From contig OZ242311.1 of the NCBI GenBank assembly GCA_965207885.1, forward strand, positions 4,096,001-4,160,000: a stretch of DNA of 64,000 nucleotides, in the 5' to 3' direction. The notes under the pieces were generated by a model, which saw only the letters and a list, made by a program, of their open reading frames with translations, was not told the origin of the DNA and did not search any database. Of the stretch, positions 9,744 through 47,405 are shown in pieces. A program made the position numbers and the translations under genes. Each line of letters starts with the position of its first letter. The stretch's first letter is position 1. The DNA comes from Candidatus Latescibacterota bacterium (GTDB lineage Bacteria > Latescibacterota > UBA2968).

Positions 9744-9774
9744 GAACGGTGTACAACTGGTTCAGGCCAGTTCA
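9744..9774 (+). repeat. Dispersed hairpin element, copy 1 (short loop)
   Basis: GAACGGTGTACAACTGGTTCAGGCCAGTTCA flanked by TCTACG on both sides. Confidence 0.85.
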
Positions 9775-9792
9775 TCTACGAATCAAAAAAGC

Positions 9793-9823
9793 CGTCATTG
9801 CGGCAGGGTGTTAGCCGCAATCC
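9793..9823 (+). repeat. CGTC-type REP-like palindrome
   Basis: CGTCATTGCGGC-AGGGTGTTA-GCCGCAATCC (ATTGCGGC/GCCGCAAT stem). Confidence 0.65.
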
Positions 9824-9848
9824 AGAGGTTTTGGGTGGTAGGGCGGGG

Positions 9849-10035
9849 TTCGTCTATTCGTCTATTCGTCTATTCGTCTATTCGTCTATTCGTCTATTCG
9901 TCTATTCGTCTATTCGTCTATTCGTCTATTCGTCTATTCGTCTATTCGTCTATTCGTCTATTCGTCTATTCGTCTATTCGTCTATTCGTCTATTCGTCTA
10001 TTCGTCTATTCGTCTATTCGTCTATTCGTCTATTC
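9849..10035. repeat. Perfect octamer tandem repeat (TTCGTCTA)x23 + TTC
   Basis: 184 nt of perfect units counted from 9849 to 10032; abuts the stop codon at 10036. Confidence 0.98.
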
Positions 10036-10773
10036 TCAATGCTTACACGCCACATGTCGATCTTTGTATATCCCCTTTAGAAACTTTTCTGGATTGAGTT
10101 CTTCTGGCAAATAATGCCATGCCGTGCTATAGCGCGTGCGATTGCTGTGGTTATCATAAGCACCGTGCAGGAGATTGGCGGAAAACAGAACAACTGTACC
10201 AGCGGGAATGACCAGATCCACAGCCTGCGATTCATCGACCACTGTCCAACGGCCGTGCCTGCCTATATTTTTGTGGTGTTCGGCAATCTCACCCATCCGG
10301 TGGCTACCGGGCACCACCCGCAAACACCCATTCTCCAAATCTGAATCTTCCAGATAAATACCGCAACTGATAATGCGATCCGTATCGGTCCCAAAATAAA
10401 AATTGTCCTGATGCCAGCCCGTTGACGTACCGCCATTGGGCAACTTGGGAAAAAACTTGGTGCCAAACAAATCGATATTTTCACCAATTAATACCGCCAC
10501 GCGGTCTAAAATCGCCGGTTCACGCGCCAGTTCCAACACGCGGGCATCAACCACACAAACACCCTGAATTTTGTGCAACAAGCCCGCCCGGGGTTCCCCG
10601 CACTCGTCCAACTCGAGCGTCCAGTGCGGCACCTCCTCTGTCAGCTTGCTACCCTCTGCGACCAGTTCATCAAATACCTGCTTGTAATAGGCCAATCGCT
10701 CGCCCTGGATCAGGCTCTCAAAAACGAGATACCCATCTTCTCGAAACTGCTGTACCTGTTCGTCTGTCAACAT
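10036..10773 (-). CDS. PhyH family dioxygenase
   Basis: MLTDEQVQQFREDGYL, GWHQDNFYF, NGCLRVVPGSH, LHGAYDNHSNRTR; GGGAGG RBS. Confidence 0.9.
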   Translation of the reverse strand: MLTDEQVQQFREDGYLVFESLIQGERLAYYKQVFDELVAEGSKLTEEVPHWTLELDECGEPRAGLLHKIQGVCVVDARVLELAREPAILDRVAVLIGENIDLFGTKFFPKLPNGGTSTGWHQDNFYFGTDTDRIISCGIYLEDSDLENGCLRVVPGSHRMGEIAEHHKNIGRHGRWTVVDESQAVDLVIPAGTVVLFSANLLHGAYDNHSNRTRYSTAWHYLPEELNPEKFLKGIYKDRHVACKH

Positions 10774-10789
10774 GAAAAACCTCCCTGTC

Positions 10790-11743
10790 TCATTTCTCAC
10801 TGCGAATTTCCCTATTCAACCGCGCGGCCTTCACCAACTCGCGCTCCAGCAATTGGTAATAGGCTGCAGAATCCATCGTCGCTTTTTTCTTCACCAGAGC
10901 CTGCACCTCGTCAATCGCCTTACCATAAGCTGCGACAAGCGCGGGCGAAGCACCTTTGGGAACGAGAAAATTGAGCAAAAAACAACGGTCTGCCAACATT
11001 CCATCGCCCGCGTCGATATCGGACAGACGCGTACCCAACCCATCGCCATTATCGTCCAAAATCGCGTTCTCTGTCGCAATCAGCCCCTCACTCAAAAACC
11101 AGGCATCTGTCAGTGAAGATGCCTGGGTGCAAATCTCCAGAACCGAAATGCGGTCATCGCGATTTTGATCTGCACTACCATCCTCCAGTGCCTGAACAAA
11201 AAAACGCATAAATTGCGTGGCATTGCGTTGATCCATACTGCGCGTACTCGCGCATATAATACGCCCATCTCGACTCAGTGCATTGACAAAAGGCGCACTC
11301 ATCGACGCACCATTGACAACAATAATGCGCCGCACAGATAACATCTTCAAAAATCCATCCAGATCTTCAGCTGTCAAATCCGCACCGGGAATATTCAACT
11401 TGGCAACCTGGCGACGATAGCTTCCGTGCCCAATTAAAAAAATGAACACATCGTCACCCGACGTTACCCGCTCCGACAAACCGCGGAATACATTGCGGAT
11501 GCCTGCTATTGATGACATGCCATCGGCATTCTCACCCGTCTCATTCACCAATAGCACATTTGCCGCGGGATGATCACATCGCTCAATCAGCACCCGGCGC
11601 AAACGCTGCCCCCAATCGTCAAACCGCTCGGAATACTCGTCCTCTCCACCGCTACCGCTGATGATCACATCAAAAACAGCGGCATTTGCCTGCGCCAGCA
11701 TCAACACCCAAATTGGGAAAATCCATAATATGCCTTTTTTCAC
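10790..11743 (-). CDS. Secreted caspase/legumain(C13)-fold-like hypothetical protein
   Basis: Signal peptide; IFLIGHGS, VVNGASMSAPF, DQNRDDRIS; GTG start overlaps upstream stop. Confidence 0.55.
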   Translation of the reverse strand: MKKGILWIFPIWVLMLAQANAAVFDVIISGSGGEDEYSERFDDWGQRLRRVLIERCDHPAANVLLVNETGENADGMSSIAGIRNVFRGLSERVTSGDDVFIFLIGHGSYRRQVAKLNIPGADLTAEDLDGFLKMLSVRRIIVVNGASMSAPFVNALSRDGRIICASTRSMDQRNATQFMRFFVQALEDGSADQNRDDRISVLEICTQASSLTDAWFLSEGLIATENAILDDNGDGLGTRLSDIDAGDGMLADRCFLLNFLVPKGASPALVAAYGKAIDEVQALVKKKATMDSAAYYQLLERELVKAARLNREIRSEK

Positions 11744-14097
11744 GGCTCTCCCCGCTTCCGTCTCAAATACCATTCAACGCAAAGCAACAACACGAGTAGA
11801 ATATAAAAAGGCGGAAAATGCCACAACGGAAAACGATCCAATCGCGCATGAGCCTGGTCGGTATATGGAATCTGCTCAGCCAATTCGTCGAGCGCGTCCA
11901 ACTCGATAAATTTGCCACCCGTGTGTGCAGACAGGCGTTTCAAAAAATCGGGATTATAACGCGCAGACAAAAACTCGAGATGATCCGGTCGCGCCAGCAC
12001 AGCCGCGTCCAACTGCCCAATATCTACGCCATCGGAATCGCGCGCCGTGAGCTTCACTCGGTGCAATCCCGCTTCTGTAGCCTCAAAAATCGCAGAATAC
12101 GCACCCACCTCGGCGATCGATTCAGAAATCGGCAATCTAACCGTCCCACCATTCGGTATCTCGACCTGCACATCGACGGACAGCCCTTCGCGAGGTTCGA
12201 AAAGAGAATCGCGCACCACAAACTTCAAATCGCGCATGTCTCCTACGACAACATCCTCGCCGCTATCGATCATCGTCACAGGCTCTGGCACCCGCATTGC
12301 CAGCAAACGCGCCAACTGCCGCCAAAAGCGTTCGTGAGCGGCATCTTCAACATTCTGCATCATCTGCCACTGCCACGTCTCGCCCGTACCCAACGCAGCA
12401 CTCAAACCCTCTCCATACCGCTGCCAGGCAAACAGCGGCTGTGCATCCACAGCTTCAGACTCGGCATCCACCGTCGCCATCACCGTTGCACCAGCGCGCA
12501 CAGACGCAAACGCATTGACCCCGTAAAGCGCGGACAAATTCGCCCACTGCTCGGCATTGACTTCGGCATCTTCGCTCAAAGACCAGACCCCGGACAATAC
12601 GCCTTCAATCGTCGGCTTAGCGCGAAAAGCCACATCGTCGTAATCACCCGCAGGGCCCAACACAACGGGCAACATCGGTTCAATAGTAGAATGCGCCCAC
12701 CCGCCCTCTGAGTACGCGCGGGGACCGCCCAGCATCAAAAAACTGCCCCCGCGTTTGGACACAAATTCCCGCGTCAAATTGAGTTGGGCAAGAGAAAAGA
12801 AATCGCGCTCAATATCCCCCCAGATCATCACATGGTAGCGAAAAAGCTCTGACACATCTGAAGGATACCCTCCCGCCAACTCCGACTCTGACACGCCAAT
12901 GCGGATAAAAACCGCTTCGTCATAACGCGGCGCATTCAGCGCCTGATCGTCAAAACCTTCAAACAGGGGATTCGCCATTGTCGCATCGCGCCCACGGAAA
13001 ACAAACTTGCGCTCGGCACCAGAAATGCGAACCAGACTCGACAAAACGAGTTGCGGCGCTCCATCTAAGGCACGCCGCAAAAACTTGCCCTCCCAATTGG
13101 GACGCCCGCTAAAATACAAAATGCGAAAAACGCGCTCGCGATTATCCACCAGAATATCTCGCGCATTATTCTCAGCAATGCGGTCTTTGGTCGCAACATC
13201 CGTGGTATCTGCCAAACGCACCCGCACGCGGTGTGATACCCAGCCATCTCTTTGCGGATCAAAAGCGAGCCGAACGTAATTTTCTTCTTCTGGTCCCACA
13301 ATCGAAAGCGGTGACGACGCCACCACCCGCTTGCCATCCAGCACATCGACCACCACATCTTCACCGCCCAACCCCTCGGCCACCACCCGCGCGGTAACCG
13401 CCATCTCATCGGATCGCACGCGCGACACCGATACATCGGTCAATGCCAGATCGCGCCAGAGATCATCGCGTCCTATTCCCACTGTAAAAACGGGCACATC
13501 GCGGGACAAATCCGTTATCTGAACAGGCGAGACACTTTGCTGCACCCCATCGCTAAACACCACCACAGCCGACACCGCAGCCCCCGACATTTGCTTGAGC
13601 ACCCCGCGAACTGCACCGACAATATCTGTTCGCCCCTGATCAAACGCGAGATCCTCAACCTCATTAACGCGCGCTGTCGTGCTGCCAAACCGAAACCGCG
13701 CCACCTGATGGGATTGCGTCAAAACGCGCTCAAAATCCGATCCCTGATACACCTGCACAAATCTTTCTGCCCGCGCCTGCCCATCGTATTCGGGCACCGT
13801 CATACTGCGGGAATCATCAAACAAAACAGGCACAAAATGCGTACCAGGCTCCAATTTTCGCGCCACCAGCGCAGGTCCCAATAACAAAAATAGCACCAGC
13901 GCCAATGCCACCCCGCGCAATCCAATCAACGCCTTTGAAAGCGCGGGTCGCCGCCTGTGCCAGAACAACACACTCGCACAAAAAACAACACCGAGAAGGA
14001 CCAACGCCACAGGCCATGCGACATCCAGTACAAACCGCACATCCCGATATACAGCGGCGCGATCCCCGGCCAACAAGTGTAATAACCAGTCAGTCAC
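11740..14097 (-). CDS. Membrane protein with vWA domain and glutamine-amidotransferase-like domain
   Basis: N-terminal TMs, DDSRSM MIDAS, VVFSDG, GGSFLMLGG, C-terminal EWYLRRK anchor. Confidence 0.75.
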   Translation of the reverse strand: MTDWLLHLLAGDRAAVYRDVRFVLDVAWPVALVLLGVVFCASVLFWHRRRPALSKALIGLRGVALALVLFLLLGPALVARKLEPGTHFVPVLFDDSRSMTVPEYDGQARAERFVQVYQGSDFERVLTQSHQVARFRFGSTTARVNEVEDLAFDQGRTDIVGAVRGVLKQMSGAAVSAVVVFSDGVQQSVSPVQITDLSRDVPVFTVGIGRDDLWRDLALTDVSVSRVRSDEMAVTARVVAEGLGGEDVVVDVLDGKRVVASSPLSIVGPEEENYVRLAFDPQRDGWVSHRVRVRLADTTDVATKDRIAENNARDILVDNRERVFRILYFSGRPNWEGKFLRRALDGAPQLVLSSLVRISGAERKFVFRGRDATMANPLFEGFDDQALNAPRYDEAVFIRIGVSESELAGGYPSDVSELFRYHVMIWGDIERDFFSLAQLNLTREFVSKRGGSFLMLGGPRAYSEGGWAHSTIEPMLPVVLGPAGDYDDVAFRAKPTIEGVLSGVWSLSEDAEVNAEQWANLSALYGVNAFASVRAGATVMATVDAESEAVDAQPLFAWQRYGEGLSAALGTGETWQWQMMQNVEDAAHERFWRQLARLLAMRVPEPVTMIDSGEDVVVGDMRDLKFVVRDSLFEPREGLSVDVQVEIPNGGTVRLPISESIAEVGAYSAIFEATEAGLHRVKLTARDSDGVDIGQLDAAVLARPDHLEFLSARYNPDFLKRLSAHTGGKFIELDALDELAEQIPYTDQAHARLDRFPLWHFPPFYILLVLLLCVEWYLRRKRGEP

Positions 14098-17000
14098 TTC
14101 TCATTTTCCGTCAACGCTTTAAAATACTCGGCAACGCGGGCGCGGTATTGCTCGGGAATTTCGTCTGTCTTGCCAGCGGAAAGGCCATAGTCTCCTTTTC
14201 GCTCGCGAATCAGCACCGACAATTCTTCGGCAGACAGCGTCAAAGGCTTGATTGCACGCTCAAAAATCAAATCGTACTGCGGCACCGCTCCCTTGCGATG
14301 ATAATCGCGCCCAATACCCGCCAGATCTTCGCGGATACCCGTCAAACGCTGTCGCACACCCAAATCAGTCGGCAAAAGCGACTCGGCCTCGCGCAAGCGA
14401 TCCATCCAATCGCGAAAACCGCCTTCGGCAAAACGCCGCAACGCATCGGGATCTTGCGGTCCCCATCCAAATCGCCCGTCACCATCCCCTCTTTCTCCCC
14501 CCATCACACTCTCCAGACGCTCCTGCGCCCGCTCCAGCGCCTCCAGATCGTCGCGCACCAGAAGTTGCGCGACACCATCGAGTTTTTCAGCCGCCTGATC
14601 CAACTTCTCCGCCACGCCGCGCTCGTGTGTTTCCGATGCCTGCCACGCTCCCAATCTCACCAATCGCTCGCCCGCTTGCATATCTTCAAAAATGCCCTCT
14701 CGGCTCGTCTCGCGCAGCCAGTCATTGAGTTTTTGCGCCATCAAACCCTGGCTTTCAGCGGCCTTTTCTGCCAACGCACTCGCTTCCTCCATCATATCGC
14801 GGAACTGATCGGTCGTGCGTTGCTTGCCCTCGAGCATCTCGCTCAATGCGCGCTCCGAATCAGACAGCGTTCCGCGCTGCGTCTGCTGCTCCTGAGCCTG
14901 TGCGACCAGACCGCGCTGTTGGGCCCGCAAACTATCCATATTCTCTTGCAACATTCTCATGCGCTCAGCCGCAGCCCCGCGCGACAAATTGCCCAATTGC
15001 TCCTGCACATCGCGCAATGCGTCCAAAGCGCGATTGCCCGCAGCCCGCGCCCGTTGCAACTGATCGTTATTCAGATTTTGCGCGCTGCGATTCATCTGCC
15101 GCCGCGCACCTTCCAATTGTTCCCGCGCCCGCCGCGCCTGTTGTGGATCCATATCCCCAGACGCAATCTCGCCATTGACTGCATCGAGCGCGTCCATCGT
15201 CTGACGCTGCGCTTCGCGCAACTGCTCCAAGCGCCGTTCGGCTTCTTCGCGGGCTTCGCGCTCCAGCTTTTCAGCCTCTGAAATCAACTGCGCCACATCT
15301 TCGTTAATCGCCGCCTGCCGCCTGGTCAATTCCTCAATTTTATTTTGTGCTTCTGCCGTCTCAGCAAGTTGCTGTTGCAATGTAGATGCCTCTTCCCGAA
15401 AATCTCGCCGTTGCGCCAACTCCAGACCATCTAACTCGCGTTGCTGTGCCTGACCCCCACCACCTCCGCGCTGTCGCTGCCTGCCTTGCACCACCTCAGA
15501 CTCTCTCGGTCTTCTCTGCAAAAGATATCGATACGCGCGCTGAGCGTGCCCCCAGGCCCTTGCCAATGCCGCATCCGGATCGTCAAAAGACGCCTCGTGC
15601 AATGCCTCTACAACACCCGCAAACTCAGCTTCCAAATCCGCTGCCTGATTCCTCACAGAACCCCGAACATTCTCCTGCGCTTCAATAATGGCGTGCTTTT
15701 GCTCATCGTATTCTTCCCGATCCATTCCCGACGCGCCTTTGCGCAAATTCCAGATCGCGATAATCACCTGCTTCTGACCCTCAGCACCACCCCGCTGCCC
15801 CCTGCCCTGCCCCTGTTGACCACCCTCGTTGCTCACAGCCTGGCGATAGAGTCTTTCAAAAGGCCGAATCTCCAAAAAATAGGGATCGCCCAGAGTCTCA
15901 ATCTCAGACCGTCCAGGCTTGCCATCTTCTGCCCAGACCGTCCAGGTAATAAAATCACCCGCCGCGAGTTCCAGATCTTCCAGTGCCATCGGATACTCAC
16001 CCTCTGCGCTCTCTATCCGCGCTGTCTCCGTCTTAAGAGAAATCCGCACGGGATCGCGCCCTGCAACCTCGTATTGCAAACCGTAATCCGTGAGCCTGTA
16101 ATCGTCTTTTATCGAAAACCCAAAAGCCACTTCCTCAATTGCCGTAGCTTCGTCATCCCCGCGTGGAAAACGAACCTGAATGCGCGGCGGCTGATCGACC
16201 TTCGCCGTAATTTTATACGCGCGCGCATACTCATTTTCCTCGCCATCGGCATCTCGCAACGCCACCTCGTATGTCCCGTTCTCTGTAATCGACAGTGCGC
16301 CTTCCCACAAGGCATCATCTGACTTTTTTAACGCCATTTCTTTTTCACCATCCAATACCAGCGATGCCTTCTCCAACTCTTTATTGACCGTCACTGATAC
16401 AACCACCTCCGTGCCTTCAGGCGCCGTAATATCACCGCCATAAGGCACATCGCGGTCCTCCATTTCCAAATAATCGGGATAGCGATATAGAAGTCCAATC
16501 GACACGACCTCGGGCGGCGTCCACACCGAAAGAGTATAGACATCGGAACGATAAGACCCCACCTGCACCTGGTACTCTGTATCGGCATACAAATCGCGCA
16601 ATTGATGGGCAAACACATCGCCAGCCTCACCAGGCTCTAAAGGCGCGGTTTGCCAGTCCCCGCCCGATGGCCGCCACTGAATTGCCTTGCTCGCACCCAT
16701 AAGATCTGTCGTCACCCAAACCATCTGATGCGCCCCGCGGCGCACCCGCGCATCACCCGGTTCAACCGTATAGGGCAAAGGCAAAGCTGGTGCAAAAAAC
16801 AACCGTCCCGCAATATCGCCCAGATTAACCTGCCACAATGCCACGAGCAACACAACAGCACCCAATCCCCAAACCCCAACAGCCGCGCGGCGCACCCGCT
16901 TCAAAACGCGCAAATCAATCACAGGTGGCGCCTGTATCGCCGACAATTCGCGCACCTGCTGAAACACCTGCTCGGTCATCCACTCGGAAACCGGCGTTGA

Positions 17001-17330
17001 CCCGTGCAGCGACACAGTACTCACAATCAGATCCTCAAGATCGGGATGATGTGCATCGAGAAACAGCGCGATCTGCTCTCGTGTCACCACCGTCCGCTGC
17101 GGAACGTACAACCACTTATAACCCGCGCCAAAGACCAGAATGAGAAATGCCAGAACCGGCACAATCACAGGCACGCGATCGGCAAAAGCCACCACAGCGC
17201 ACAACCCGATCAGCAACCCCAAAAACACCGCGCCAAACATCAACCGACCCTGCAAACGCCGCCGCCGCTCAAACTGCGCGGCAACTTCGCGGATCGCGTG
17301 TTCCAATTTAAGCGGTAGCAATGGTATCAT
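14094..17330 (-). CDS. DUF4175-like membrane protein with long coiled-coil
   Basis: Three N-terminal TMs, Ig-like middle (DQPP, DDYRL), Q/E-rich coiled coil, terminal PEQYRARVAEYFKAL. Confidence 0.75.
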   Translation of the reverse strand: MIPLLPLKLEHAIREVAAQFERRRRLQGRLMFGAVFLGLLIGLCAVVAFADRVPVIVPVLAFLILVFGAGYKWLYVPQRTVVTREQIALFLDAHHPDLEDLIVSTVSLHGSTPVSEWMTEQVFQQVRELSAIQAPPVIDLRVLKRVRRAAVGVWGLGAVVLLVALWQVNLGDIAGRLFFAPALPLPYTVEPGDARVRRGAHQMVWVTTDLMGASKAIQWRPSGGDWQTAPLEPGEAGDVFAHQLRDLYADTEYQVQVGSYRSDVYTLSVWTPPEVVSIGLLYRYPDYLEMEDRDVPYGGDITAPEGTEVVVSVTVNKELEKASLVLDGEKEMALKKSDDALWEGALSITENGTYEVALRDADGEENEYARAYKITAKVDQPPRIQVRFPRGDDEATAIEEVAFGFSIKDDYRLTDYGLQYEVAGRDPVRISLKTETARIESAEGEYPMALEDLELAAGDFITWTVWAEDGKPGRSEIETLGDPYFLEIRPFERLYRQAVSNEGGQQGQGRGQRGGAEGQKQVIIAIWNLRKGASGMDREEYDEQKHAIIEAQENVRGSVRNQAADLEAEFAGVVEALHEASFDDPDAALARAWGHAQRAYRYLLQRRPRESEVVQGRQRQRGGGGGQAQQRELDGLELAQRRDFREEASTLQQQLAETAEAQNKIEELTRRQAAINEDVAQLISEAEKLEREAREEAERRLEQLREAQRQTMDALDAVNGEIASGDMDPQQARRAREQLEGARRQMNRSAQNLNNDQLQRARAAGNRALDALRDVQEQLGNLSRGAAAERMRMLQENMDSLRAQQRGLVAQAQEQQTQRGTLSDSERALSEMLEGKQRTTDQFRDMMEEASALAEKAAESQGLMAQKLNDWLRETSREGIFEDMQAGERLVRLGAWQASETHERGVAEKLDQAAEKLDGVAQLLVRDDLEALERAQERLESVMGGERGDGDGRFGWGPQDPDALRRFAEGGFRDWMDRLREAESLLPTDLGVRQRLTGIREDLAGIGRDYHRKGAVPQYDLIFERAIKPLTLSAEELSVLIRERKGDYGLSAGKTDEIPEQYRARVAEYFKALTENEK

Positions 17331-24510: not shown

Positions 24511-24622
24511 AATCAGTGAGTAAAATTATTCCCTATTCAAAGGCATATTGAAGCGTTCTTCGCATATCAATTTCGACCTCAATATCATCAGGTTTGTTCC
24601 CCTCACACTTTTCCCTTCACAG

Positions 24623-24659
24623 TGAACTGGTCTGAACCGCGACCAGTTGTACACCGTTC
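24623..24659 (-). repeat. Dispersed hairpin element, copy 2
   Basis: Reverse complement GAACGGTGTACAACTGGTCGCGGTTCAGACCAGTTCA inside a degenerate pyrimidine-rich heptamer array. Confidence 0.85.
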
Positions 24660-24676
24660 CTCCCTTCCCCTCCTTC

Positions 24677-25648
24677 TCACCTATTATACGGAAAATGCCC
24701 CCCGCGCACATTGCGCCATACCGCGTCACAAGCCTCTAACACATCCTCATCCAAACGCCCATCTGCCGCCTGAATATTGTGCGCCAGGTGTTCCAACTTG
24801 CTCGCACCCAAAATCATCGAATCGACAATCGACTGAGACATCAACCATTGCAAAGACAATTCAATCATCGTCTTGCCCGCATTATGTGCAATCTGCTTCA
24901 ATTCATCAAGCGCATCAAAATTGCGATCATACCAGAACCTGCCGTAATAATCCCTATTCAAATCGAAACGCGTGCCCTCTGCCGGTTCAGTATCCCTCGT
25001 GTGCTTGCCCGTCAGCATACCCGCAGCGAGCGGATTATATACCGCCATTCCGATATTCATTTCACGACTAAACGCAACGCACTCTTCATCAATACTCCGC
25101 GTAATCAAATTATAGGGCACCTGCAACACCACGGGCGGTGCCCAATTGTTTACATCGCATTTCCAAAGCGCTTTCATCACCTGCCACGAAGCGAAATTCG
25201 ACATCCCCACATATATGACCTTCCCCTGTTGTACCAATGTGTCAAACGCCGCCATTGTCTCTTCAAGAGGCGTATTCCAATCGGGCTTGTGCAAATAGAG
25301 AATATCCAGACAATCGGTCTGCAACCGCTTCAAACACGCTTCCACTCCCCGAATCACGTGCCAGCGGTGCAAGCCCTGATCCTTAATCTCATCCTGTCCG
25401 ACAAAATTGGCGATCTTGCTCGCCAAAATCACCCGATCGCGTTTGCCCTTGAGCGCCGTACCCACAATTTCTTCGGACACGCCATTCACATAAGTATCTG
25501 CCGTATCGATAAAATTCACACCGGCATCCAGAGCCGTATCTACCATGCGAATAGACGTAGCCTCATCGGCCTGGTCGCCAAATGTCATAGCTCCCAAACA
25601 TATACGCGACACGCGAATACCCGTCCCTCTTAAAACGCGATACTCCAT
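24677..25648 (-). CDS. Aldo/keto reductase
   Basis: ICLGAMTFG, NFIDTADTY, SEEIVG, LKRLQTD..LYLH, GKVIYVGMSN, YNPLAAGMLTGK. Confidence 0.93.
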   Translation of the reverse strand: MEYRVLRGTGIRVSRICLGAMTFGDQADEATSIRMVDTALDAGVNFIDTADTYVNGVSEEIVGTALKGKRDRVILASKIANFVGQDEIKDQGLHRWHVIRGVEACLKRLQTDCLDILYLHKPDWNTPLEETMAAFDTLVQQGKVIYVGMSNFASWQVMKALWKCDVNNWAPPVVLQVPYNLITRSIDEECVAFSREMNIGMAVYNPLAAGMLTGKHTRDTEPAEGTRFDLNRDYYGRFWYDRNFDALDELKQIAHNAGKTMIELSLQWLMSQSIVDSMILGASKLEHLAHNIQAADGRLDEDVLEACDAVWRNVRGGHFPYNR

Positions 25649-35971: not shown

Positions 35972-35990
35972 AATGGACCTTCTAACTTTC

Positions 35991-38302: not shown

Positions 38303-38369
38303 GGGAATCTTCCTTTCTCAACGCAACCGGCGCGTTCCGGCAGCAGGTTAAATGACAATGCACACCGCC

Positions 38370-38398
38370 AATATATGCAGTGTGTAAAATCCTGTCAA
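38370..38398 (-). promoter_or_regulatory. sigma70-like promoter of the TPR gene
   Basis: TTGACA-N17-TATATT on the minus strand. Confidence 0.6.
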
Positions 38399-38438
38399 GT
38401 CTCTGCGCGAAGGCGCAAACTGCACGCCGCTATTACCC

Positions 38439-38624: not shown

Positions 38625-38635
38625 AGTACCTCCTT

Positions 38636-39967: not shown

Positions 39968-40092
39968 AATATTTCCTTTTTGAAGGGTACTTATGATACA
40001 TTTGACCGTTGAGGCTGTCAATCTGAATTGATTACATTTTGGGACGCTTTCCTTTGGCTTATAGTTCCCGGTTCTAAATAAAAGGAGATATT

Positions 40093-40878
40093 GTGTTACC
40101 TGATTATCCGACGATTTTCTGGATTTTGGCTGTCATTTCTGTAATTTTTGTCGGTATAGCCAAAGCCGGGTTTGGCGGAGGTGTTGGCATTTTGGCAACG
40201 CCACTCATGGCACTTGTCATTCCAGTGGCAGACTCGGCAGCGATTTTGTTACCACTCTTAATGGTTTGCGATGTATTTGCCGTTGCACACTACCGCAAGC
40301 ATTTTCATCGGCGCAGTGTAAAATTGCTCTTGCCCGGTGCGGCAATCGGGATCGGTATAGGAGCATTATTCTTTGGATATTTCAGCGCGAATGAGCGCGT
40401 ATTGCAACTCGGTTTGGGGATTTTGAGTTTGTTTTTTGTGGTATTCCAGGCTTTGCGCGCAGTGATTACGGGCGCACTTACAAAGCGACACCCACACAGT
40501 GCAGAAGGCGTTTTCATGGGCGCAATAGCGGGCTTTACGTCAACCATCGCACATGCTGGCGGTCCCCCCACAACCATCTATTTGCTTCCCCAACAATTGC
40601 CCCGCAACCTCTTTGTGGGAACGACCGTAATTCTTTTTGCCGCGATCAATCAGATGAAATTAATTCCCTATTTGGGATTGGATATTTTGCGAGCCGAACA
40701 TCTCGTCACAATCGCAATCCTATCCCCATTGGGCTACGCAGGCGTGAGGTTGGGCATTTTTTTTAATAAGCGTTTCACAGACCACTGGTTTAATATAGTC
40801 GTCTATTCAATTCTATTTATCGCAGGCGTACAGTTGATTTCGGGCAAAAACTTAATTCAATTGTTAGGCATTGTGTAA
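40093..40878 (+). CDS. Sulfite exporter TauE/SafE family protein
   Basis: GIAKAGFGGG, LLPLLMVCD, HAGGPP, KLIPY. Confidence 0.88.
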   Translation: MLPDYPTIFWILAVISVIFVGIAKAGFGGGVGILATPLMALVIPVADSAAILLPLLMVCDVFAVAHYRKHFHRRSVKLLLPGAAIGIGIGALFFGYFSANERVLQLGLGILSLFFVVFQALRAVITGALTKRHPHSAEGVFMGAIAGFTSTIAHAGGPPTTIYLLPQQLPRNLFVGTTVILFAAINQMKLIPYLGLDILRAEHLVTIAILSPLGYAGVRLGIFFNKRFTDHWFNIVVYSILFIAGVQLISGKNLIQLLGIV

Positions 40879-40957
40879 ACTGTAAAATTGTCCTATTTTT
40901 TAGAAAAAGGGCCGGGGACTGGTGTGATCCTTTCACGTCTCACTCTGGAGGTTGGCC

Positions 40958-41611
40958 ATGGCATCGCGCATCTGCTTTATACTGACCTGTATCATCGCTT
41001 TTTCCGGGTGTTATACGCAACTTCGGGCACCGCGCGTTCACCGTGAACAACGCGCTGAATCCCCTGTCAAGCCTTCCGAGAATTCTGTACAGCGATTTGA
41101 ATATTACTACTACAATTATTGCAATCCATCTCCTCTGCCATTTTACGAATCATACCATCCATATCGCCCGTACCGTCCATATCGGCGATATCCGCGCTGG
41201 AACCGGCACCGCCTCATCTGGAAATATTCGAGCTGGGCAAGCGTGTACGACCCGTGGTGGCGGGGGTGGTCGCCGAGGATTTTGGTGCCTCATATTGTAT
41301 ATGCGCCAGCGCCAACGGTAAGACCTCAAATAGAACGCGAGCAAGTCAATCCGCGTCCCCGTATCAGATACACAGGCGTGCGTGGCGAACCCGCCTCGGC
41401 CAGCACAATTCGGTCGGGCAACACCACAACTGAAAGCACACCTACAGCACAGCCGGAGAACTCGCGCAGCACCAAAACGAAAAGCACACAGCAAACGGAG
41501 AACTCGCGTAGTACCAAAACACAATCATCAGAAAAATCAAAAAAAGAAGAAAAATCTGAAAAACGCGAAGAGAAACGCTCAACGCAGCGCCGCAGAGGGG
41601 AGATGAGATAA
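40958..41611 (+). CDS. Hypothetical lipoprotein with Y/P/W-rich middle and low-complexity tail
   Basis: Lipobox FSGC; 42-nt tandem duplication at 41444-41527. Confidence 0.7.
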   Translation: MASRICFILTCIIAFSGCYTQLRAPRVHREQRAESPVKPSENSVQRFEYYYYNYCNPSPLPFYESYHPYRPYRPYRRYPRWNRHRLIWKYSSWASVYDPWWRGWSPRILVPHIVYAPAPTVRPQIEREQVNPRPRIRYTGVRGEPASASTIRSGNTTTESTPTAQPENSRSTKTKSTQQTENSRSTKTQSSEKSKKEEKSEKREEKRSTQRRRGEMR

Positions 41612-42885
41612 TGTCCAAACATCTCTGTATCCCGACATTTGTGATTTGCGTCTTCGCGGTATCTGTCCCTGCACAAGAAGTCGCTCTCGATAGCTTTTCT
41701 GGCATTGGTGCCCGCGCCATGGGCATGGGCGGTGCTTATATTTCCGTATCCGATGATTTTTCTGGCCTGTTCTGGAACCCCGCGGGATTGGCGCGAATCG
41801 AGCGCGGAACCGTAAATTGGGGCGTTTCGCACGACCGATTTCGCAACATATCGCAATTTTTTGACCGTTCTTCAACCCTCGAATTGCGCAGTACGCGCAT
41901 TGCATCCCTGGGTTTTGTCTATCCCGTTCCCGTGTATCGCGGGAGTCTGGTCTTTGCCGGAGGCTTTGGGCGCAATCAAAATTTTGATGGAGGATTACAG
42001 ATTGATGCGTATGATACCATCGCCAATTTTGATAAAGCGGGATTTTCAGAAGACAAAGGCGCTCTCGGCGCGTGGACATTTGGGGCTGCAATTGATCTGA
42101 TGCCGCGTTTGTCGGCGGGGATCTCGTTGTTTCGCTGGGGGGGAACCAATCGCTTTTTACAGGAATTGACCCTTGAAGATGTGCAGCGGGTACACGCCGA
42201 CACCATCCGCATCTTCCAGCGTTTTGAATCTGAGGAACGCTATTCTGCCTGGGGCATCCAGGGCGGCATTCGGTATTGGCATCCCACGGGATTTCAATTT
42301 GGCATTGTGGCAACAGCGGCCACGCCATTGCGCGTATCGGCTGAGCTGGCGGATGAATTTGAAGACGAGTTTGAAGACCGCACAGATACCTATCCACGCG
42401 AATCTTTTTCGGACGCATATGAAATTCGTCAACCCCTGACTTTTGGGATGGGAATTGGATGGTCGTCGGGAGGATTGACGGTGAGCGGCGACGTACATTA
42501 CGGCGATTTGCAAGAAATAACTTACGAGATTTTGCCACTCAATATTGCACCCAATGTCGATGATTTCCGGCGGCAATATCGCAGTGCGGCGCGGCTGCAT
42601 TTGGGATGTGAATATGTCATTTCGCATTGGGGCATCGCGTTCAGAGGTGGTTACTACCGCGACCCGGTTCGCTATGTGGGGGGCGGCAGTGTCCCAGAAA
42701 TACAAATTGAGACAGACCGCGATGCATGGACACTCGGTTTTGGCACCGAATTGGAAAAGGCTGTAACCCTGGATTTTGCCGCAGTGATTGGCGGCTACAA
42801 AGCCATTGAAGGTAATCGCGCAGATCGCGTACGTGCAGTGCGGGTACTCGCCTCCGCGCGTTTTTATTTTTTTACAGGACTTTAG
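41611..42885 (+). CDS. Outer-membrane beta-barrel, OmpP1/FadL-like
   Basis: GARAMGMGGAY..DDFSGLFWNPAGLA N-terminal motif; alternating beta strands. Confidence 0.8.
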   Translation: MSKHLCIPTFVICVFAVSVPAQEVALDSFSGIGARAMGMGGAYISVSDDFSGLFWNPAGLARIERGTVNWGVSHDRFRNISQFFDRSSTLELRSTRIASLGFVYPVPVYRGSLVFAGGFGRNQNFDGGLQIDAYDTIANFDKAGFSEDKGALGAWTFGAAIDLMPRLSAGISLFRWGGTNRFLQELTLEDVQRVHADTIRIFQRFESEERYSAWGIQGGIRYWHPTGFQFGIVATAATPLRVSAELADEFEDEFEDRTDTYPRESFSDAYEIRQPLTFGMGIGWSSGGLTVSGDVHYGDLQEITYEILPLNIAPNVDDFRRQYRSAARLHLGCEYVISHWGIAFRGGYYRDPVRYVGGGSVPEIQIETDRDAWTLGFGTELEKAVTLDFAAVIGGYKAIEGNRADRVRAVRVLASARFYFFTGL

Positions 42886-42904
42886 AAAGCACAAAGGAGT
42901 TAGC

Positions 42905-43669
42905 ATGGATCAGTATATTTCTGAAACACAGTGGGCAACATTTGAAGCGCAAGGGTATCTTCATTTGGGCAAAGTAATGGACGATGGGGAACTGGAGGCA
43001 TTACAGCAGCGAATTGATGAGATCATGCTCGGCACGGCGTCCATCGACTACGATCATGTAATGATGCAACTGGATTCTGACCCCGAAAACAATGGAAAAC
43101 CCGGCCCTCAGAGCAAAGGACATAAATACGCGACACTCGGATATCGCAAAATTCAAAATTTGGAATTGGATCCCCTCTTTCTCTCATTTTTACAAAAACC
43201 ACAGTTTCGAGAAATCTGCGAACACATCTATGGCAAAAATACGCCCGTAGATTGTTTTAGGGCGATGTTTATGAACAAACCCGCGCACGACGGCACCCCG
43301 CTGGTATGGCATCAGGACCGCTGGACCGATCTAACCCTCGATCCTCAAATCACGATATGGACGGCTCTGGATCCCACATCAGTTGAAAACGGCTGTGTGA
43401 AAATTATTCCGAAATCGCATCACAGGCTGATAAATCCCCAGCAAGGCTCCGGATTTTTGACCGAAGAACACATCGAGACCATTGTATCCCAATACGAGCC
43501 AATAGATTTAATATTAGAAGCCGGCGACTCTGTTCTGCTCCACAACTGGATGCTGCACAGTTCGGGCGTAAACACCACAGATATTGCGCGCCGCGCATTC
43601 AGCGTGTGTTATATGCACGGTGACACGCGCTCATTGCGCGGCAGCACCTTCACCCGCGTCTTTGAATAG
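42905..43669 (+). CDS. PhyH family dioxygenase
   Basis: FEAQGYL, WHQD, ENGCVKIIPKSH, LHSSGVN..RRAFS; AAGGAG RBS. Confidence 0.9.
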   Translation: MDQYISETQWATFEAQGYLHLGKVMDDGELEALQQRIDEIMLGTASIDYDHVMMQLDSDPENNGKPGPQSKGHKYATLGYRKIQNLELDPLFLSFLQKPQFREICEHIYGKNTPVDCFRAMFMNKPAHDGTPLVWHQDRWTDLTLDPQITIWTALDPTSVENGCVKIIPKSHHRLINPQQGSGFLTEEHIETIVSQYEPIDLILEAGDSVLLHNWMLHSSGVNTTDIARRAFSVCYMHGDTRSLRGSTFTRVFE

Positions 43670-43672
43670 ACG

Positions 43673-43709
43673 GAGCGGTGTAAAACTGGCCGTATCTCAG
43701 GCCAGTTCA
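43673..43709 (+). repeat. Dispersed hairpin element, copy 3
   Basis: GAGCGGTGTAAAACTGGCCGTATCTCAGGCCAGTTCA flanked by TAGACG on both sides. Confidence 0.85.
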
Positions 43710-43772
43710 TAGACGAACCCCACTCCATCACTCAAAGTTGCACCAAACTCCGTCGTTGATTCGCTGATTTAT

Positions 43773-45506
43773 ATGTCTGACCCCATCGTTTTATTTGAAT
43801 CGCATCGCAAAGGTGCGAGTTATCGTTTTTGCGACCTGTGCGATACCATTTGCGTTTCGCATCCCAAAGATGTTGCTCCCGCACTCGAACGCATTGAACA
43901 GGCTGTCCATTCGGGATTACACGCAGCGGGATTTTTGTCTTATGAAGCCGCATCGGGTCTGGATCCCGTTTTAAAAACGCACGTACCGGGAGATTTTCCA
44001 CTCATGTGGTTCGGCCTGTTTCGGCATCGAGAACATATCCCTGTCGGAACACCGAATGATAGAAACTACGATCTGGACTCATGGCGCCCCTCTGTTTCGC
44101 GCGCTGCTTACGATACCGCCCTGAATCGCATTCGAGACCTCATCATTGCCGGCGATACCTATCAGGTTAATTATTCCTTCCGAATGCGGGCAAATTTTTC
44201 GGGCAATAGCCTGAGTTTTTATCGCGATCTATGTCGGGCGCAGCGCACGGATTATGCGGCGTATCTGGATATCGGGCGATTTCAAATCCTATCGGCTTCG
44301 CCCGAATTGTTTTTTTCGTTAAAAAATAACACGTTAATCGCGCGTCCGATGAAAGGCACTGCACCTCGGGGACGATGGTGGGAAGAAGATGAAGCGCGTA
44401 CAAAACAGCTTCAAAAATCCGAGAAAGACCGCGCGGAAAATGTGATGATCGTCGATTTGATGCGCAGCGATTTGGGGCGCGTTTCAAGTGGTGTGAAAGT
44501 GCCATTACTATGGCAGGTCGAACGTTATGAAACCGTATTGCAGATGACCTCAACCGTGACATCGCGCATGCGTTGTGGCGTGGGGTTGCGCGAACTGGTG
44601 ACAGCGCTCTTTCCGTGCGGCTCCGTAACCGGTGCGCCCAAAGTGCGTACCATGGAAATTATCAAAGAAGTAGAGCGAACTGCGCGGGGAATTTATACTG
44701 GAAGCATTGGCTACCTGTCGCCGGGAGGGGACATAGCCTTTAATGTGGCGATTCGCACAGTCTGTATTGACCGCAAAACGGGTATTGCAGAATTTGGTGT
44801 GGGCAGTGGCATAACCTGTGATTCCTCAAATGATGGCGAGTATGAAGAGTGTTTGACCAAAGCGCGCATGCTCGCAGAACGACAACCTGTTTTTGACCTG
44901 TTTGAAACCCTGCGATACGACGGCAAAAACGGGTTCTTTTTGTTAAATCGTCACATAGATCGAATAGAAGCGTCCTCGCGGTATTTTGGATTTGCTTTTG
45001 ATCGGTTAAACGTCCTATCTGAGCTCGAAAAGGCAGTATCGGGTCTGGATACACCACAACGGGTGCGCCTTGTCCTATCGCGCAGGGGCTGTGTACAGGT
45101 TGAAACCACACCACTTAAAAATGCATCGCAAGATCGCGTACTTTCCGCCCGTATCTCACCACTACCGGTTGACAGCCGCGATCCCCTATTATTTCACAAA
45201 ACAACGCGCCGCGAACCCTATACCTCTCGATTGAACATGTATCCCCTATGTGAAGAAATCATTCTCATCAACGAACGCGGCGAAGCTACAGAATGCAGCA
45301 TTGGCAATCTCGTCGCCAAATGGGACGACCTGTATGTAACACCTCCCATTTCCTGTGGCCTGTTGGGCGGCACCTTTCGCGCCGAATTATTATCGCGAGG
45401 CAAAGTTACGGAGCAAGTGTTAAAAATAGATGACCTGAAACGCGCGGAGGTACTCTACATGATCAATTCTGTGCGAAAATGGACAAGGCTTAAACTTATT
45501 GAATAG
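43773..45506 (+). CDS. pabB: Aminodeoxychorismate synthase component I fused to ADC-lyase (class IV PLP) domain
   Basis: GDTYQVNY, SASPELF, PMKGT, KDRAENVMIVDL, FPCGSVTGAPK, NVAIRT; C-terminal FETLR, HKTT, GLLGGTFR. Confidence 0.92.
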   Translation: MSDPIVLFESHRKGASYRFCDLCDTICVSHPKDVAPALERIEQAVHSGLHAAGFLSYEAASGLDPVLKTHVPGDFPLMWFGLFRHREHIPVGTPNDRNYDLDSWRPSVSRAAYDTALNRIRDLIIAGDTYQVNYSFRMRANFSGNSLSFYRDLCRAQRTDYAAYLDIGRFQILSASPELFFSLKNNTLIARPMKGTAPRGRWWEEDEARTKQLQKSEKDRAENVMIVDLMRSDLGRVSSGVKVPLLWQVERYETVLQMTSTVTSRMRCGVGLRELVTALFPCGSVTGAPKVRTMEIIKEVERTARGIYTGSIGYLSPGGDIAFNVAIRTVCIDRKTGIAEFGVGSGITCDSSNDGEYEECLTKARMLAERQPVFDLFETLRYDGKNGFFLLNRHIDRIEASSRYFGFAFDRLNVLSELEKAVSGLDTPQRVRLVLSRRGCVQVETTPLKNASQDRVLSARISPLPVDSRDPLLFHKTTRREPYTSRLNMYPLCEEIILINERGEATECSIGNLVAKWDDLYVTPPISCGLLGGTFRAELLSRGKVTEQVLKIDDLKRAEVLYMINSVRKWTRLKLIE

Positions 45507-45515
45507 GAGATATTT

Positions 45516-46718
45516 ATGTACCGCATCGGACAACCCGAAGCCAAGCGCGTGGAAACCCTCCTGGAAAGCGGTGAAATTTTTCGCTATGGCAAGGCCGGCG
45601 AATGCGACCAATTTGAAGCAGACTGGGGAAAGCGATTGGGCGGTGTTCAGGTCCGCATGACCACCAGCGGCACGGCATCGCTCTATTGCGCCCTCATTGG
45701 CCTGAAAGTTGGACCGGGCGATTCGGTCATTGTGCCATCGTGTACCTATATGGCGACCGCACTCGCCGTTGTTGCCGCAGGAGCCATGCCCATTATTGCC
45801 GAAGTAGATGAATCGATCACCCTCTCGCCCGAAGATGTCGAGCAAAAAATTGCCCCGCACACAAAAGCCATCATTCCCGTGCATATGTGGGGATTGCCCT
45901 GTAATATGGACGCACTGATGGATATAGCAGAAAAACGCGGGGTAAAAGTATTGGAAGATGCCTGCCAGGCCGTGGGTGGTGGATACAAAGGGCGCGAACT
46001 CGGGTCCATCGGACATGCCGGGGCATTCAGCTTTAACTATTTCAAAAACATGACCAGCGGCGAAGGCGGCGCGTTTGTCTCTGCTGATGACTCTGTATTT
46101 CGGCGCGGATCAGTAGCAGCAGATTGTTGTTCTTATTACTGGAATCCCGACGAACACCGCCCAAATGAACAATTTGTCGGATTGAATTTCAGAGCCACTG
46201 AAATCTCGGGCGCCATTCTCAACGCACAACTCGAGCGCATCGACGAAATGTTGGATCGCATGCGCGGACACAAACGAACCCTGACAAAAGTGGGCGAAGA
46301 CGCGGGCCTGACATCCATTACAAACAACAGTCTGGATTGCGAATGCGGGACCCATGTCGGCTTTATTTTCAATTCCGAAGAAAACGCTCGCGCCTTTGCC
46401 AAACAGATATCGGAATTGAAAGGACGCGCTTTTTTGCCCATCGACACCGGGCGACACGTTTACACGCGATGGGATCCCATTATGCGAAAGCAGGGGGCAC
46501 ACCATCCCGCGCTCGACCCATTTAAACTGCCGCAAAACAAGGCATTGAATATCGAATATTCAATGGACATGTGCCCCAGGTCGCTGGATATCTTGAGCCG
46601 CGCAGTACTCATTGGCATGCACCCGGACAACGACCGAGAAAAGATAGATGAACTTGCAGACGCCATTCGGGAATCTGCACATGTTGTAAAACATCAAAAA
46701 AAGGAGATTTTGACATGA
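45516..46718 (+). CDS. DegT/DnrJ/EryC1/StrS aminotransferase
   Basis: TSGTASL, VHMWG, LEDACQA, FSFNYFKNMTSGEGG. Confidence 0.92.
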   Translation: MYRIGQPEAKRVETLLESGEIFRYGKAGECDQFEADWGKRLGGVQVRMTTSGTASLYCALIGLKVGPGDSVIVPSCTYMATALAVVAAGAMPIIAEVDESITLSPEDVEQKIAPHTKAIIPVHMWGLPCNMDALMDIAEKRGVKVLEDACQAVGGGYKGRELGSIGHAGAFSFNYFKNMTSGEGGAFVSADDSVFRRGSVAADCCSYYWNPDEHRPNEQFVGLNFRATEISGAILNAQLERIDEMLDRMRGHKRTLTKVGEDAGLTSITNNSLDCECGTHVGFIFNSEENARAFAKQISELKGRAFLPIDTGRHVYTRWDPIMRKQGAHHPALDPFKLPQNKALNIEYSMDMCPRSLDILSRAVLIGMHPDNDREKIDELADAIRESAHVVKHQKKEILT

Positions 46719-47338
46719 AAATGCAATGGATGTTGATTCTAATTTTGACCCTGAGCAACAGTGTATTGGCTGCGCCGAGCAAACCAGCACCTCGCAAACC
46801 CAAGGAAGGCCAAAACGAAATCGCGATCCGTCACCATAAAGAAGGCTTGCGCCACCGGGATGCGGCCTGGGTCTATGAAGAAAAAATGTCGGGCACAGAA
46901 GGAGAAGAGCGAGAAACGTACGCGCGGTTTATCCAGGACCTGTACAATCGCGCACTGGGAGAATTTGCGAAAGCGACCGAGCAGGACTCGACGTATTACC
47001 AGGCATTTAGCAGTTTGGGATACGTCAAGCGCAAAACCGGAGATATGGACGGAGCAATGGCAGCGTACAATCGCGCTTTGACATTAAATCCAAACTACGC
47101 AGAAGCCATTGAATATCGCGCAGAAGCGTATTTGATCGTGGGACAGGTGGAAAAAATGAAAAAAGCGTATGGGGTATTGGCCGCACTGAATCGCCCTCAC
47201 GCAGCGCGATTGTTGACCTTTGTAACACAATGGGCAGATGGCGCAACCGATGCAGATATGGCAACCTCTTTGCGGACATGGGCATCTGAACAAAAAGAAA
47301 AACTCGGCGAGGTAAAAACATTTGTTGAGAAATGGTGA
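46715..47338 (+). CDS. Secreted TPR protein
   Basis: Signal peptide; AFSSLGY..AYNRALTLNPNYAEAIEY. Confidence 0.8.
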   Translation: MKMQWMLILILTLSNSVLAAPSKPAPRKPKEGQNEIAIRHHKEGLRHRDAAWVYEEKMSGTEGEERETYARFIQDLYNRALGEFAKATEQDSTYYQAFSSLGYVKRKTGDMDGAMAAYNRALTLNPNYAEAIEYRAEAYLIVGQVEKMKKAYGVLAALNRPHAARLLTFVTQWADGATDADMATSLRTWASEQKEKLGEVKTFVEKW

Positions 47339-47341
47339 TAT

Positions 47342-47405
47342 GTAGGAGTGGGTTTCGAGCGGGGTACAACTGGCCGTCTCTCAGGCCAGTTCAACCCGCT
47401 CCTAC
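47342..47405 (+). repeat. GTAG REP palindrome carrying dispersed hairpin element copy 4 (47357-47393) in its loop
   Basis: GTAGGAGTGGGTTTC-[GAGCGGGGTACAACTGGCCGTCTCTCAGGCCAGTTCA]-ACCCGCTCCTAC. Confidence 0.85.

Follow-up and report, generated by a model that had tools for sequence, protein, structure and literature searches.

A 30-38-nt hairpin nested in the repeats of a Latescibacterota genus behaves like mobile DNA, with a size among the smallest known

The means by which DNA elements of just 20-40 nt move have been an open question since the cyanobacterial small dispersed repeats (SDRs) were described. The question arises again in a 64-kb stretch of a Latescibacterota genome, here called the window, in which a short hairpin occurs four times, always inside another repeat. 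Is this hairpin mobile DNA in its own right, or is it a part of the repeats that carry it? Here, we show that the hairpin, at 30-38 nt, behaves like a mobile DNA element, which places it among the smallest known, and that it follows a simple insertion rule.

All four copies proposed in a sequence-only reading of the window were confirmed in their coordinates, strands and consensus, and each indeed lies in a different host repeat, namely an octamer arm, a degenerate heptamer array, a TAGACGAA arm and a GTAG-tagged REP. Copy 1 (9744..9774, plus strand) is a short-loop form of 31 nt, built from GAACGGTGTAC, the stem AACTGG / loop / CCAGTT and a final CA. It interrupts the NNNNCGAA octamer arm of a composite intergenic element (9722..10032, minus strand) that also holds 23 x TTCGTCTA; on the minus strand this host reads (TAGACGAA)23, a centre CCCCGCCCTACCACCCAAAACC..GCCGCAATGACGGC, and then the NNNNCGAA arm containing the copy. 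Copy 2 (24623..24659, minus strand, 37 nt) belongs to a subfamily with a GGTC/GACC stem and is hosted by a degenerate heptamer array of the CTTCACA/CTTCCCC type (24596..24690). Copy 3 (43673..43709, plus strand, 37 nt) has a GGCC stem and is flanked by TAGACG and TAGACGAA; its host is a composite element (43667..43769, plus strand) with a TAGACGAA arm, a centre and a CGTTGATT arm, lying between the stop of the upstream gene and the start of pabB. Copy 4 (47357..47393, plus strand, 37 nt) is located at the apex of the GTAG-tagged REP GTAGGAGTGGGTTTC[..]ACCCGCTCCTAC (47342..47405, plus strand), where the 5' tail GAGCGGG of the hairpin is able to pair with the right arm of the REP.

A pattern for the stem matched three times in the window, copy 1 being missed since its loop is too short for the pattern, and not once in 100 shuffles. 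Across the whole 6.23-Mb genome, nhmmer returned 51 hits at E<=0.05, including exactly four inside the window, and a covariance model (R1) also recovered exactly the four known copies there, a match that holds by construction as the model was built partly from them. Folding of the four copies as single-stranded DNA reproduces the hairpin that had been claimed (z-scores -2.0 to -4.0). Covariation of the stem, also claimed from the window, was seen as compensatory changes in a set of 48 hits (34 distinct) from several genomes, in an alignment fitted to the model: 97.8% of 232 cells were paired and 4 of 8 pairs had changed on both sides, which none of 500 shuffles reached. The element has a length of 30-38 nt and comprises an 11-nt conserved 5' tail (N-A-R-CGG-K-GTAC), a 6-8-bp hairpin and a 3' CA, and each of the 40 parsed copies has either GTAC or GTAA as its tag. 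The absence of real terminal inverted repeats (TIRs) was upheld, as the termini share only the 4 nt GAAC/GTTC; these and the lack of a target site duplication (TSD) set the element apart from DDE-type MITEs, which have TIRs of at least about 10 bp plus a TSD.

The ends of the element and its strand sense are constant on integration; it replaces an AA dinucleotide and creates no target duplication. Paralogous empty sites were found for 20 of the 40 parsed copies, and among the listed examples of empty sites, covering about nine host types, the filler was AA in all but two (GA, AG). Orthologous and paralogous empty sites together bear out the proposal that AA in place of the hairpin restores the host. 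All 11 octamer-hosted copies follow the same strand rule, reading NNNNCG[hp]NNNNCGAA. Left flanks of the parsed copies end in ACG, TTC, AAT, AGT, CAG, CAC or GTG, and no conserved tetranucleotide was found 5' of the element among them. At the left end of an IS605-type element, the autonomous copy reads ..GGTG-AA-TCAACC and the TnpB-only copies ..GGTG[hairpin]TTGACC; since the hairpin is located about 175 nt inside this left end, at a point where AA stands in the autonomous copy, we rejected the idea that it forms the end of a TnpB insertion sequence. No target duplication was present at REP, IS, B or C hosts (B and C being mini-elements), where AA is lost instead. One allele, described below, could be read as a 7-nt duplication, but the REP, IS and B/C hosts are without any and the TSD reading was discarded. 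The comparison of empty and filled sites bears out the claim of fixed ends without TSD, and the non-autonomous nature of the element is likewise supported. Loss of two bases is not predicted by textbook transposition chemistry. We also considered the loop as a guide, its CGTCT being complementary to the AGACG of the octamer, and rejected this since loops vary within the same host (CGTTT, CGTAT, CACTT).

At orthologous sites the element is gained and lost independently of its host repeat, even between 99.5%-identical strains. Empty sites in sister genomes, suggested earlier as a check, were found for the hosts of copies 2, 3 and 4. The orthologue of the copy 2 array is filled in G020 and is without the hairpin in G003, G017, G002 and G010; for the copy 3 composite, G003 is without the hairpin, G000 has it in the left arm and G020 in the right arm; and the copy 4 REP is empty in G003 and G015 and carries the hairpin in opposite orientation in G009. 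As orthologous hosts are thus empty, filled, filled in the other arm or filled in reverse in different species, the mobility of the hairpin is independent of the host repeat. For copy 1, the orthologous site is only a 25-34-nt spacer in 6 species, and in 2 others it contains other composites with differently placed hairpins. At the strain level, contigs of strains X8 and X11 carry an extra 30-letter hairpin at site 43754-43760 of the copy 3 host. The X8 contig, with about 18 differences over 4.5 kb, represents a 99.5%-identical strain with one extra copy, and its allele is the one also readable as a 7-nt duplication; X8 has a 67-letter replacement as well. The X11 array has 3 additional units, so that array length itself is polymorphic, and within arrays hairpin gain and altered unit number are indistinguishable.

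The element was present in all 20 other genomes of the genus that were searched, with 17-208 copies each and about 1,500 copies across the genus, and in none of 4 genomes from other genera of the family, while a reversed-pattern control in the same survey gave 0-1. The genus is sponge-associated and found in sponge and marine metagenomes, as a lineage of metagenome-assembled genomes. Viral contigs were tried as carriers and rejected, since the 5' tail was found in 0 of their 43 pattern hits, which we regard as chance matches; plasmids gave no match to the element, and our literature search returned no existing description of it for Latescibacterota. Copies sit overwhelmingly within other repeats, with hosts including octamer, heptamer and decamer arrays, REP apices, two other mini-elements, the IS605 left end and the element's own loop. 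Nesting is extensive, with copies inside each other's loops, inside the IS605 left end and inside a second mini-element of 23 nt. The suggestion that structured repeats are targeted stands in part: copies near tandem arrays are overrepresented (13 of 51, compared with 3.8% of non-coding AA/TT sites), but a single host family is linked to much of the spread, and this is also expected from hitch-hiking or gene conversion, so that targeting is only partly shown.

The reading that we favour, and consider probable, is that of an ultra-small non-autonomous mobile DNA family, confined to one Latescibacterota genus, which would spread by rare precise jumps combined with amplification inside a host-repeat family. 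Rare, precise jumps into new kinds of host would be catalysed in trans by an enzyme recognising the tail plus the hairpin, most likely on single-stranded or extruded DNA; this enzyme would not belong to the recognisable Y1/Y2 HUH transposases or the reverse transcriptases, and a function conserved in the host may be responsible. As a frequent secondary process, copies would then multiply within one host-repeat family via hitch-hiking, tandem slippage and ectopic gene conversion, and this second tier would account for the association between hairpin subfamilies and host types. That strong link between host and subfamily means that most copies need no transposition at all. A rather unlikely alternative takes this further and makes the hairpin a passenger module without dedicated transposition, spread only by homologous recombination, gene conversion, slippage and the movement of the host repeats themselves. 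It would account for the match of subfamilies to hosts, for the 20 of 20 sampled copies of G011 in one host family, for the tandem hairpin-plus-unit arrays with a period of 36-38 nt and the polymorphic array length (three more units in X11), and for the fact that no transposase tracks the element. It does not account for the same ends and the replaced AA in about nine hosts that share no flanking homology: homology-driven transfer cannot make the first jumps, and template switching by microhomology would give variable ends.

The sequence-only reading had instead favoured an HUH Y1 enzyme (IS200/IS605 TnpA or RAYT) moving a REP/PATE-like element in trans through single-stranded hairpin intermediates, an option that we now regard as quite unlikely. 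Several features do point that way. The single hairpin with a conserved 5'-foot tetranucleotide, GTAC/GTAA, resembles GTAG-tagged REPs, which the available text of PMC3733652 defines as imperfect palindromes in which one end carries GTAG or CGTC as an unpaired tag. Like REPs and REPINs, the element is a short, extragenic, multicopy hairpin without TSD, and it shares with IS200/IS605 and PATE elements the dependence on a hairpin, the lack of a TSD and a fixed strand sense. It lacks long TIRs, its size fits only single-strand chemistry, its GAGCGGG tail can pair with the REP right arm, and the source genome encodes one IS605-type tnpA. Against this, the Y1_Tnp profile (PF01797) was found in 12 of the 20 genus genomes and not in the other 8, which include G011, G015 and G016 with 200, 141 and 142 copies, single-contig genomes being among them. 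The one PF01797 hit of G000, the source genome, is the tnpA of an IS605-type element (locus L005), whose end hairpins, CCCAAGTC../CCCAATGC.., are unlike that of the element, and no RAYT flanked by the hairpins was found. Profiles for Y2_Tnp (Y2/IS91, PF04986) and for the reverse transcriptase RVT_1 (PF00078) were found in 1 and 7 of the 20 genomes, respectively; neither these nor Y1 HUH genes track element copy number in their presence, and all three were rejected as mobilisers. Also rejected were the genes between closely spaced copies, all of which are ordinary (rsmG-like, isochorismatase-like, a DUF1343-like protein and a sulfatase). Instead of separate left and right ends, the element has a single hairpin; it is not preceded by a conserved target tetranucleotide, and its insertion removes two bases. 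IS200/IS605 elements are known for a lagging-strand bias, whereas no clear replication-strand bias was seen in our counts: orientation against local GC skew in G000, where the skew is noisy, was 15/11 vs 14/11 (p=1), and a hand count of the GACA variant on the replichores of G011, with the origin assumed at dnaA, gave 21+/15- vs 16+/18-, tandem copies not being independent in such counts. Finally, the element differs from REPs and REPINs in its tag (not GTAG/CGTC) and in its arrangement as single or direct-tandem copies without inverted pairs, and it is itself a passenger inside genuine GTAG REPs of the same genomes.

Very unlikely, in our judgement, is a selected cis-acting signal, either a DNA hairpin bound by a protein or, within untranslated regions, a site of RNA stabilisation or processing, that spread through its function and not through selfish mobility. 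The compensatory changes that conserve the structure would fit such a role, as would the location of 43 of 51 copies outside ORFs, i.e. mostly intergenic, by a crude ORF call. Contigs from an RNA library span copies 3 and 4, one of them ending 11 nt past the REP, although transcription is not proven thereby. The orientation of the copies, however, has no clear bias to flanking genes (19 sense vs 11 antisense between co-directional gene pairs), and the four window copies have no T-run of an intrinsic terminator, the hairpin being followed by CA and then host sequence. A search of Rfam 15 with the window gave only 3 tRNAs at gathering thresholds, and positions 43550-43850 gave 0 matches at E<=1. 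Presence at the same site, moreover, varies between close species and strains.

Among known systems, our verdict is that the closest kind is that of the cyanobacterial SDRs (Elhai 2008), and that the element is a variant of this poorly understood kind, real and new. In the available portions of PMC4390886 and PMC5861425, SDRs are, like the element, very small dispersed repeats regarded as mobile and inserted precisely within other repeats, SDR5 splitting the HIP1 palindrome precisely between its nucleotides 3 and 4. The likeness is one of description, and the host phyla differ, Latescibacterota against cyanobacteria. Elhai and colleagues reportedly described SDR4, SDR5 and SDR6 in 2008 as families of hairpins that nest in one another and in heptamer arrays; they are said to be 21-27 nt long, shorter than the 30-38 nt of the element. 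To our knowledge, these SDRs have been reported from Nostocaceae only. Frequent nesting of hairpin repeats within one another is shared with the short, selfish palindromic repeats of organelle genomes, such as Volvox carteri mitochondrial and plastid DNA, given as 10-100-nt hairpins in the text available from PMC2670323. Those repeats differ in being organellar, AT-rich, perfect palindromes without a conserved single-stranded tail, and the AA rule is not reported in the same portion of that source.

The Latescibacterota genus represents a second, unrelated lineage with SDR-like behaviour. With many closed genomes of 17-208 copies each, clean pairs of filled and empty sites and junctions that obey a simple rule (replacement of AA, one strand sense), the question of the mobiliser is open to comparative genomics and to simple plasmid assays; one comparative route is to look for genes that are common to both lineages yet missing from their relatives. 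A broader reading, which we hold to be doubtful, is that the hairpin and the 23-27-nt B and C mini-elements together make up a guild of 'nano-transposons' that nest in one another and would be the smallest known mobile DNAs; a conserved host enzyme, and not a transposase, would put each in place of a dinucleotide (AA in the case of the hairpin, CA in that of B) through a strand-transfer chemistry new to science, and this process may also seed octamer and heptamer arrays and mosaic intergenic elements, and may move the SDRs of Nostocaceae. In this uncultured, sponge-associated bacterium, the short intergenic spaces consist of tiny repeats nested in layers, and as these vary between close strains, they could serve as strain markers.

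The hairpin element, a structured repeat of 30-38 nt, is real and belongs to a rare and poorly understood kind of element. Its ends are precise, it occupies AA in numerous unrelated repeats, and it turns over fast between species and strains. On re-reading the sequence, all four copies proposed for the window by the sequence-only reading were recovered, at 9744-9774 (copy 1, plus strand, 31 nt with a shorter loop), 24623-24659 (copy 2, minus strand), 43673-43709 (copy 3, plus) and 47357-47393 (copy 4, plus), the last three being 37 nt long. The stem pattern matched three times in the window and never in 100 shuffles, a covariance model partly built from these copies found the same four alone in the window, and folding as single-stranded DNA reproduced the proposed hairpin in all four (z-scores from -2.0 to -4.0). 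The source genome (G000; 6.23 Mb, single contig) held 51 nhmmer matches at E<=0.05, including the four in the window. The element comprises a conserved 11-nt 5' tail, N-A-(A/G)-C-G-G-(T/G)-G-T-A-(C/A), a stem starting with AACTG and ending with CAGTT, a variable loop of 4-10 nt and a 3' CA. Among 40 parsed G000 copies, stem positions 1-5 are near-invariant, position 6 has 24 G-C and 8 C-G pairs, and position 7 has 15 T-A and 12 C-G pairs. The proposed covariation of the stem held in 48 model matches (34 distinct) from several genomes, with the alignment fitted to the model: 97.8% of 232 cells were paired and both sides had changed in four of eight pairs, a level reached by none of 500 shuffles. 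Stem variants include AACTGACC/GGTCAGTT in other genomes and AAGTGC/GCACTT in a hairpin variant inside an IS. The sole inverted termini are GAAC/GTTC, in agreement with the claimed absence of terminal inverted repeats, and no matching family was found in Rfam.

For 20 of the 40 parsed copies, identical flanks lacking the hairpin occur elsewhere in G000, one additional match in this paralogous list being a self-match artefact. AA fills the empty site, as had been proposed, in all printed examples except two (GA and AG), and the rule is common to hosts without shared sequence: TAGACG-AA-TAGACGAA, TCAACG-AA-TCAACGAA, GGGTTTC-AA-ACCCGC (a REP apex), AACGCGAAT-AA-TTTGAGCG, GGCGAGT-AA-TTCGAGC, TTGTCAG-AA-TCAGGATG, CTCACAC-AA-AGACACAA, GAAGTGTG-AA-GGAGGAAG and, in the related genome G011, GGCAC-AA-AAGGCAC. 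The left end of an IS605 element also obeys it, the autonomous copy reading ..GGTGGTG-AA-TCAACC where six full-length 1.49-kb TnpB-only copies and a truncated one carry a hairpin variant. Hosts other than arrays show no flanking duplication, consistent with the suggested insertion without target duplication.

Six recognisable host classes account for 33 of the 40 parsed copies, namely NNNNCGAA octamer arrays (11 copies), GAAGTGT-type heptamer arrays (7), palindrome C (AAAACGCGAAT..TTTGAGCGTTTT; 6), a CAGGATG-repeat host (4), mini-element B (3) and GTAG REPs (2), and several of the seven unclassed copies likewise lie inside repeats. A TRF-called array lies no more than 25 nt from 13 of the 51 copies, whereas the same is true of 3.8% of non-coding AA/TT sites (binomial p = 4e-8). 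The octamer arrays serve as arms in about 40 composite intergenic elements of G000, laid out as (TAGACGAA)n, a conserved centre comprising CCCCGCCCAACCACCCAAA and a variable part, and (TTGATTCG)n. These arms are imperfect inverted octamer arrays, and a minority of composites carry a hairpin, whose orientation relative to the unit is identical in all 11 octamer-hosted copies. The window composite (9722-10032) has 23 units, other examples lie at G000:C1:5242, 32256 and 4617258, and composites are themselves present or absent between species at orthologous sites. Small RNAs that bind CsrA carry repeated GGA motifs, and similar-looking arrays of CAGGATG/AGGAT motifs lie downstream of one hairpin subfamily (G000:C1:581699, 660478, 2818182).

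The elements also nest: one hairpin sits in the loop of another on the opposite strand, and a head-to-tail pair was seen. A second family of such small elements is represented by the 23-nt B, TGAAGGCGAGT-AA-TYGAGCATG, to which C, AAAAACGCGART-AA-TTTGAGCGTTTT, is related; hairpins target the central AA in B and C alike, and inside hairpins B replaces CA at GTA-CA-ACTGG. G008 and G010 differ in whether a CGCAGATGAA decamer array contains C. B and C loci include G000:C1:3542245, 1982724 and 1626386, L163 (G007), L194 (G009), and L089 versus L088.

Empty orthologous sites, which the sequence-only reading had proposed to seek in sister genomes, were found for the hosts of copies 2, 3 and 4 in congeneric species whose flanking genes are about 90% identical. 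The copy-3 composite is hairpin-free in G003, where it shows six intact octamers; in G020 it carries a hairpin in the opposite arm in reversed orientation, and six species lack the composite wholly. At the copy-4 site, the REP is empty in G003 and G015 (GGGTTTTAAACCC and GGGTTCCAAACCC) and filled in opposite orientation with unchanged junctions in G009; in place of the REP, G008 has a decamer array with a hairpin-bearing C element, and G010 the array alone. The copy-2 site is filled in G020, holds hairpin-free arrays in G003, G017, G002 and G010, and has an empty REP in G012, G008 and G004, the same REP being filled in G009 by a hairpin itself containing B. Where copy 1 lies, nothing but a spacer of 25-34 nt is present in six species. 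At strain level, contigs from two public sequencing runs, X8 (spanning 42900-47389 with about 18 differing letters) and X11, carry an additional 30-letter hairpin in the right arm at 43754-43760, where array length is itself polymorphic; this can be read as AA replacement in an allele one octamer unit longer, or as a 7-nt duplication. At 46690-46698, near the aminotransferase/TPR gene junction, the X8 contig has 7 letters swapped for 67 others, which may be another small insertion. In an RNA library (X15), one contig runs across the TPR gene and stops 11 nt past the hairpin-bearing REP (47342-47416), which would fit, without proving, that the REP acts at the 3' end or as a stabiliser.

Amplification is largely host-linked. 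Hairpin subfamilies in G000 track host types, and 123 of the 200 copies in G011 belong to two short-loop variants; for one variant, all 20 copies sampled belong to a single host family, TTTAGCCAC(AAAAGGCAC)n, often forming tandem units of 36-38 nt (G011:C1:1841455-1841600, 2892220-2892320, 3392060-3392165). The array unit is the hairpin element plus AAGGC(ACA), superficially similar to CRISPR yet without variable spacers. The identical ends seen in hosts lacking shared flanks cannot be explained by pure conversion. We infer a two-tier spread, in which rare precise integrations, by an activity that would use the tail and hairpin, would be supplemented by frequent secondary spread within host-repeat families via hitch-hiking, slippage and ectopic conversion. 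The site-by-site variation in presence does not suit a purely functional cis-signal; between co-directional genes, orientation shows no clear bias, at 19 sense to 11 antisense.

The HUH/Y1 mobiliser suggested by the sequence-only reading finds no support in gene distribution, target pattern or strand statistics. The only Y1 gene in G000 is tnpA of an autonomous IS605-type element (L005, G000:C1:1449428-1452781; tnpA 139 aa, tnpB 367 aa), whose end hairpins are unlike the hairpin element. Its 1.49-kb TnpB-only relatives (L001, G000:C1:257600-260100) carry the hairpin variant some 175 nt in from their left end, and a different repeat holds three additional copies of the variant. Of the 20 further genomes in the genus, 12 gave a Y1_Tnp match, one a Y2_Tnp match and seven an RVT_1 match; Y1_Tnp was not found in G011, G015, G016, G017, G020, G004, G007 and G013 (91-99% complete, absence unproven), of which five are single contigs. 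Orientation showed no bias against local GC skew in G000 (15/11 versus 14/11, with an irregular skew curve), nor in a hand count over assumed, dnaA-based replichores of G011 (21+/15- versus 16+/18-), and only ordinary genes lie between close copies. Identical flanks in opposite orientation pair G000:C1 at about 5-105 kb with about 5.88-6.20 Mb (5242/5887590, 6541/5886271, 70939/6159983, 105327/6203547), which, with the irregular cumulative GC skew, points to an inverted duplication of large size or else to an artefact of assembly.

The closest known kind are the small dispersed repeats of Nostocaceae, of which SDR5 is described as inserting precisely into the HIP1 palindrome, between its nucleotides 3 and 4 (PMC4390886, PMC5861425); organelle palindromic repeats are likewise described as nested in each other (PMC2670323). 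The hairpin element fails a defining test of REPs, of PATEs and of DDE-type MITEs, and literature searches found no such elements described for Latescibacterota. None of 43 matches in viral contigs to the scan pattern GTAMAACTG-N5-20-CAGTTCA carried the 5' tail, and plasmids gave no match to the element. The scan pattern was absent from four genomes of other genera of the family, occurred once each in two of 16 sister-family genomes, and was present in all 20 other genomes of the genus, 17-208 times each, with 0-1 matches for the reversed control pattern. The pabB adjoining the hairpin element has its nearest relatives in Candidatus Latescibacterota MAGs, and most public runs containing the stretch come from sponge or marine metagenomes.
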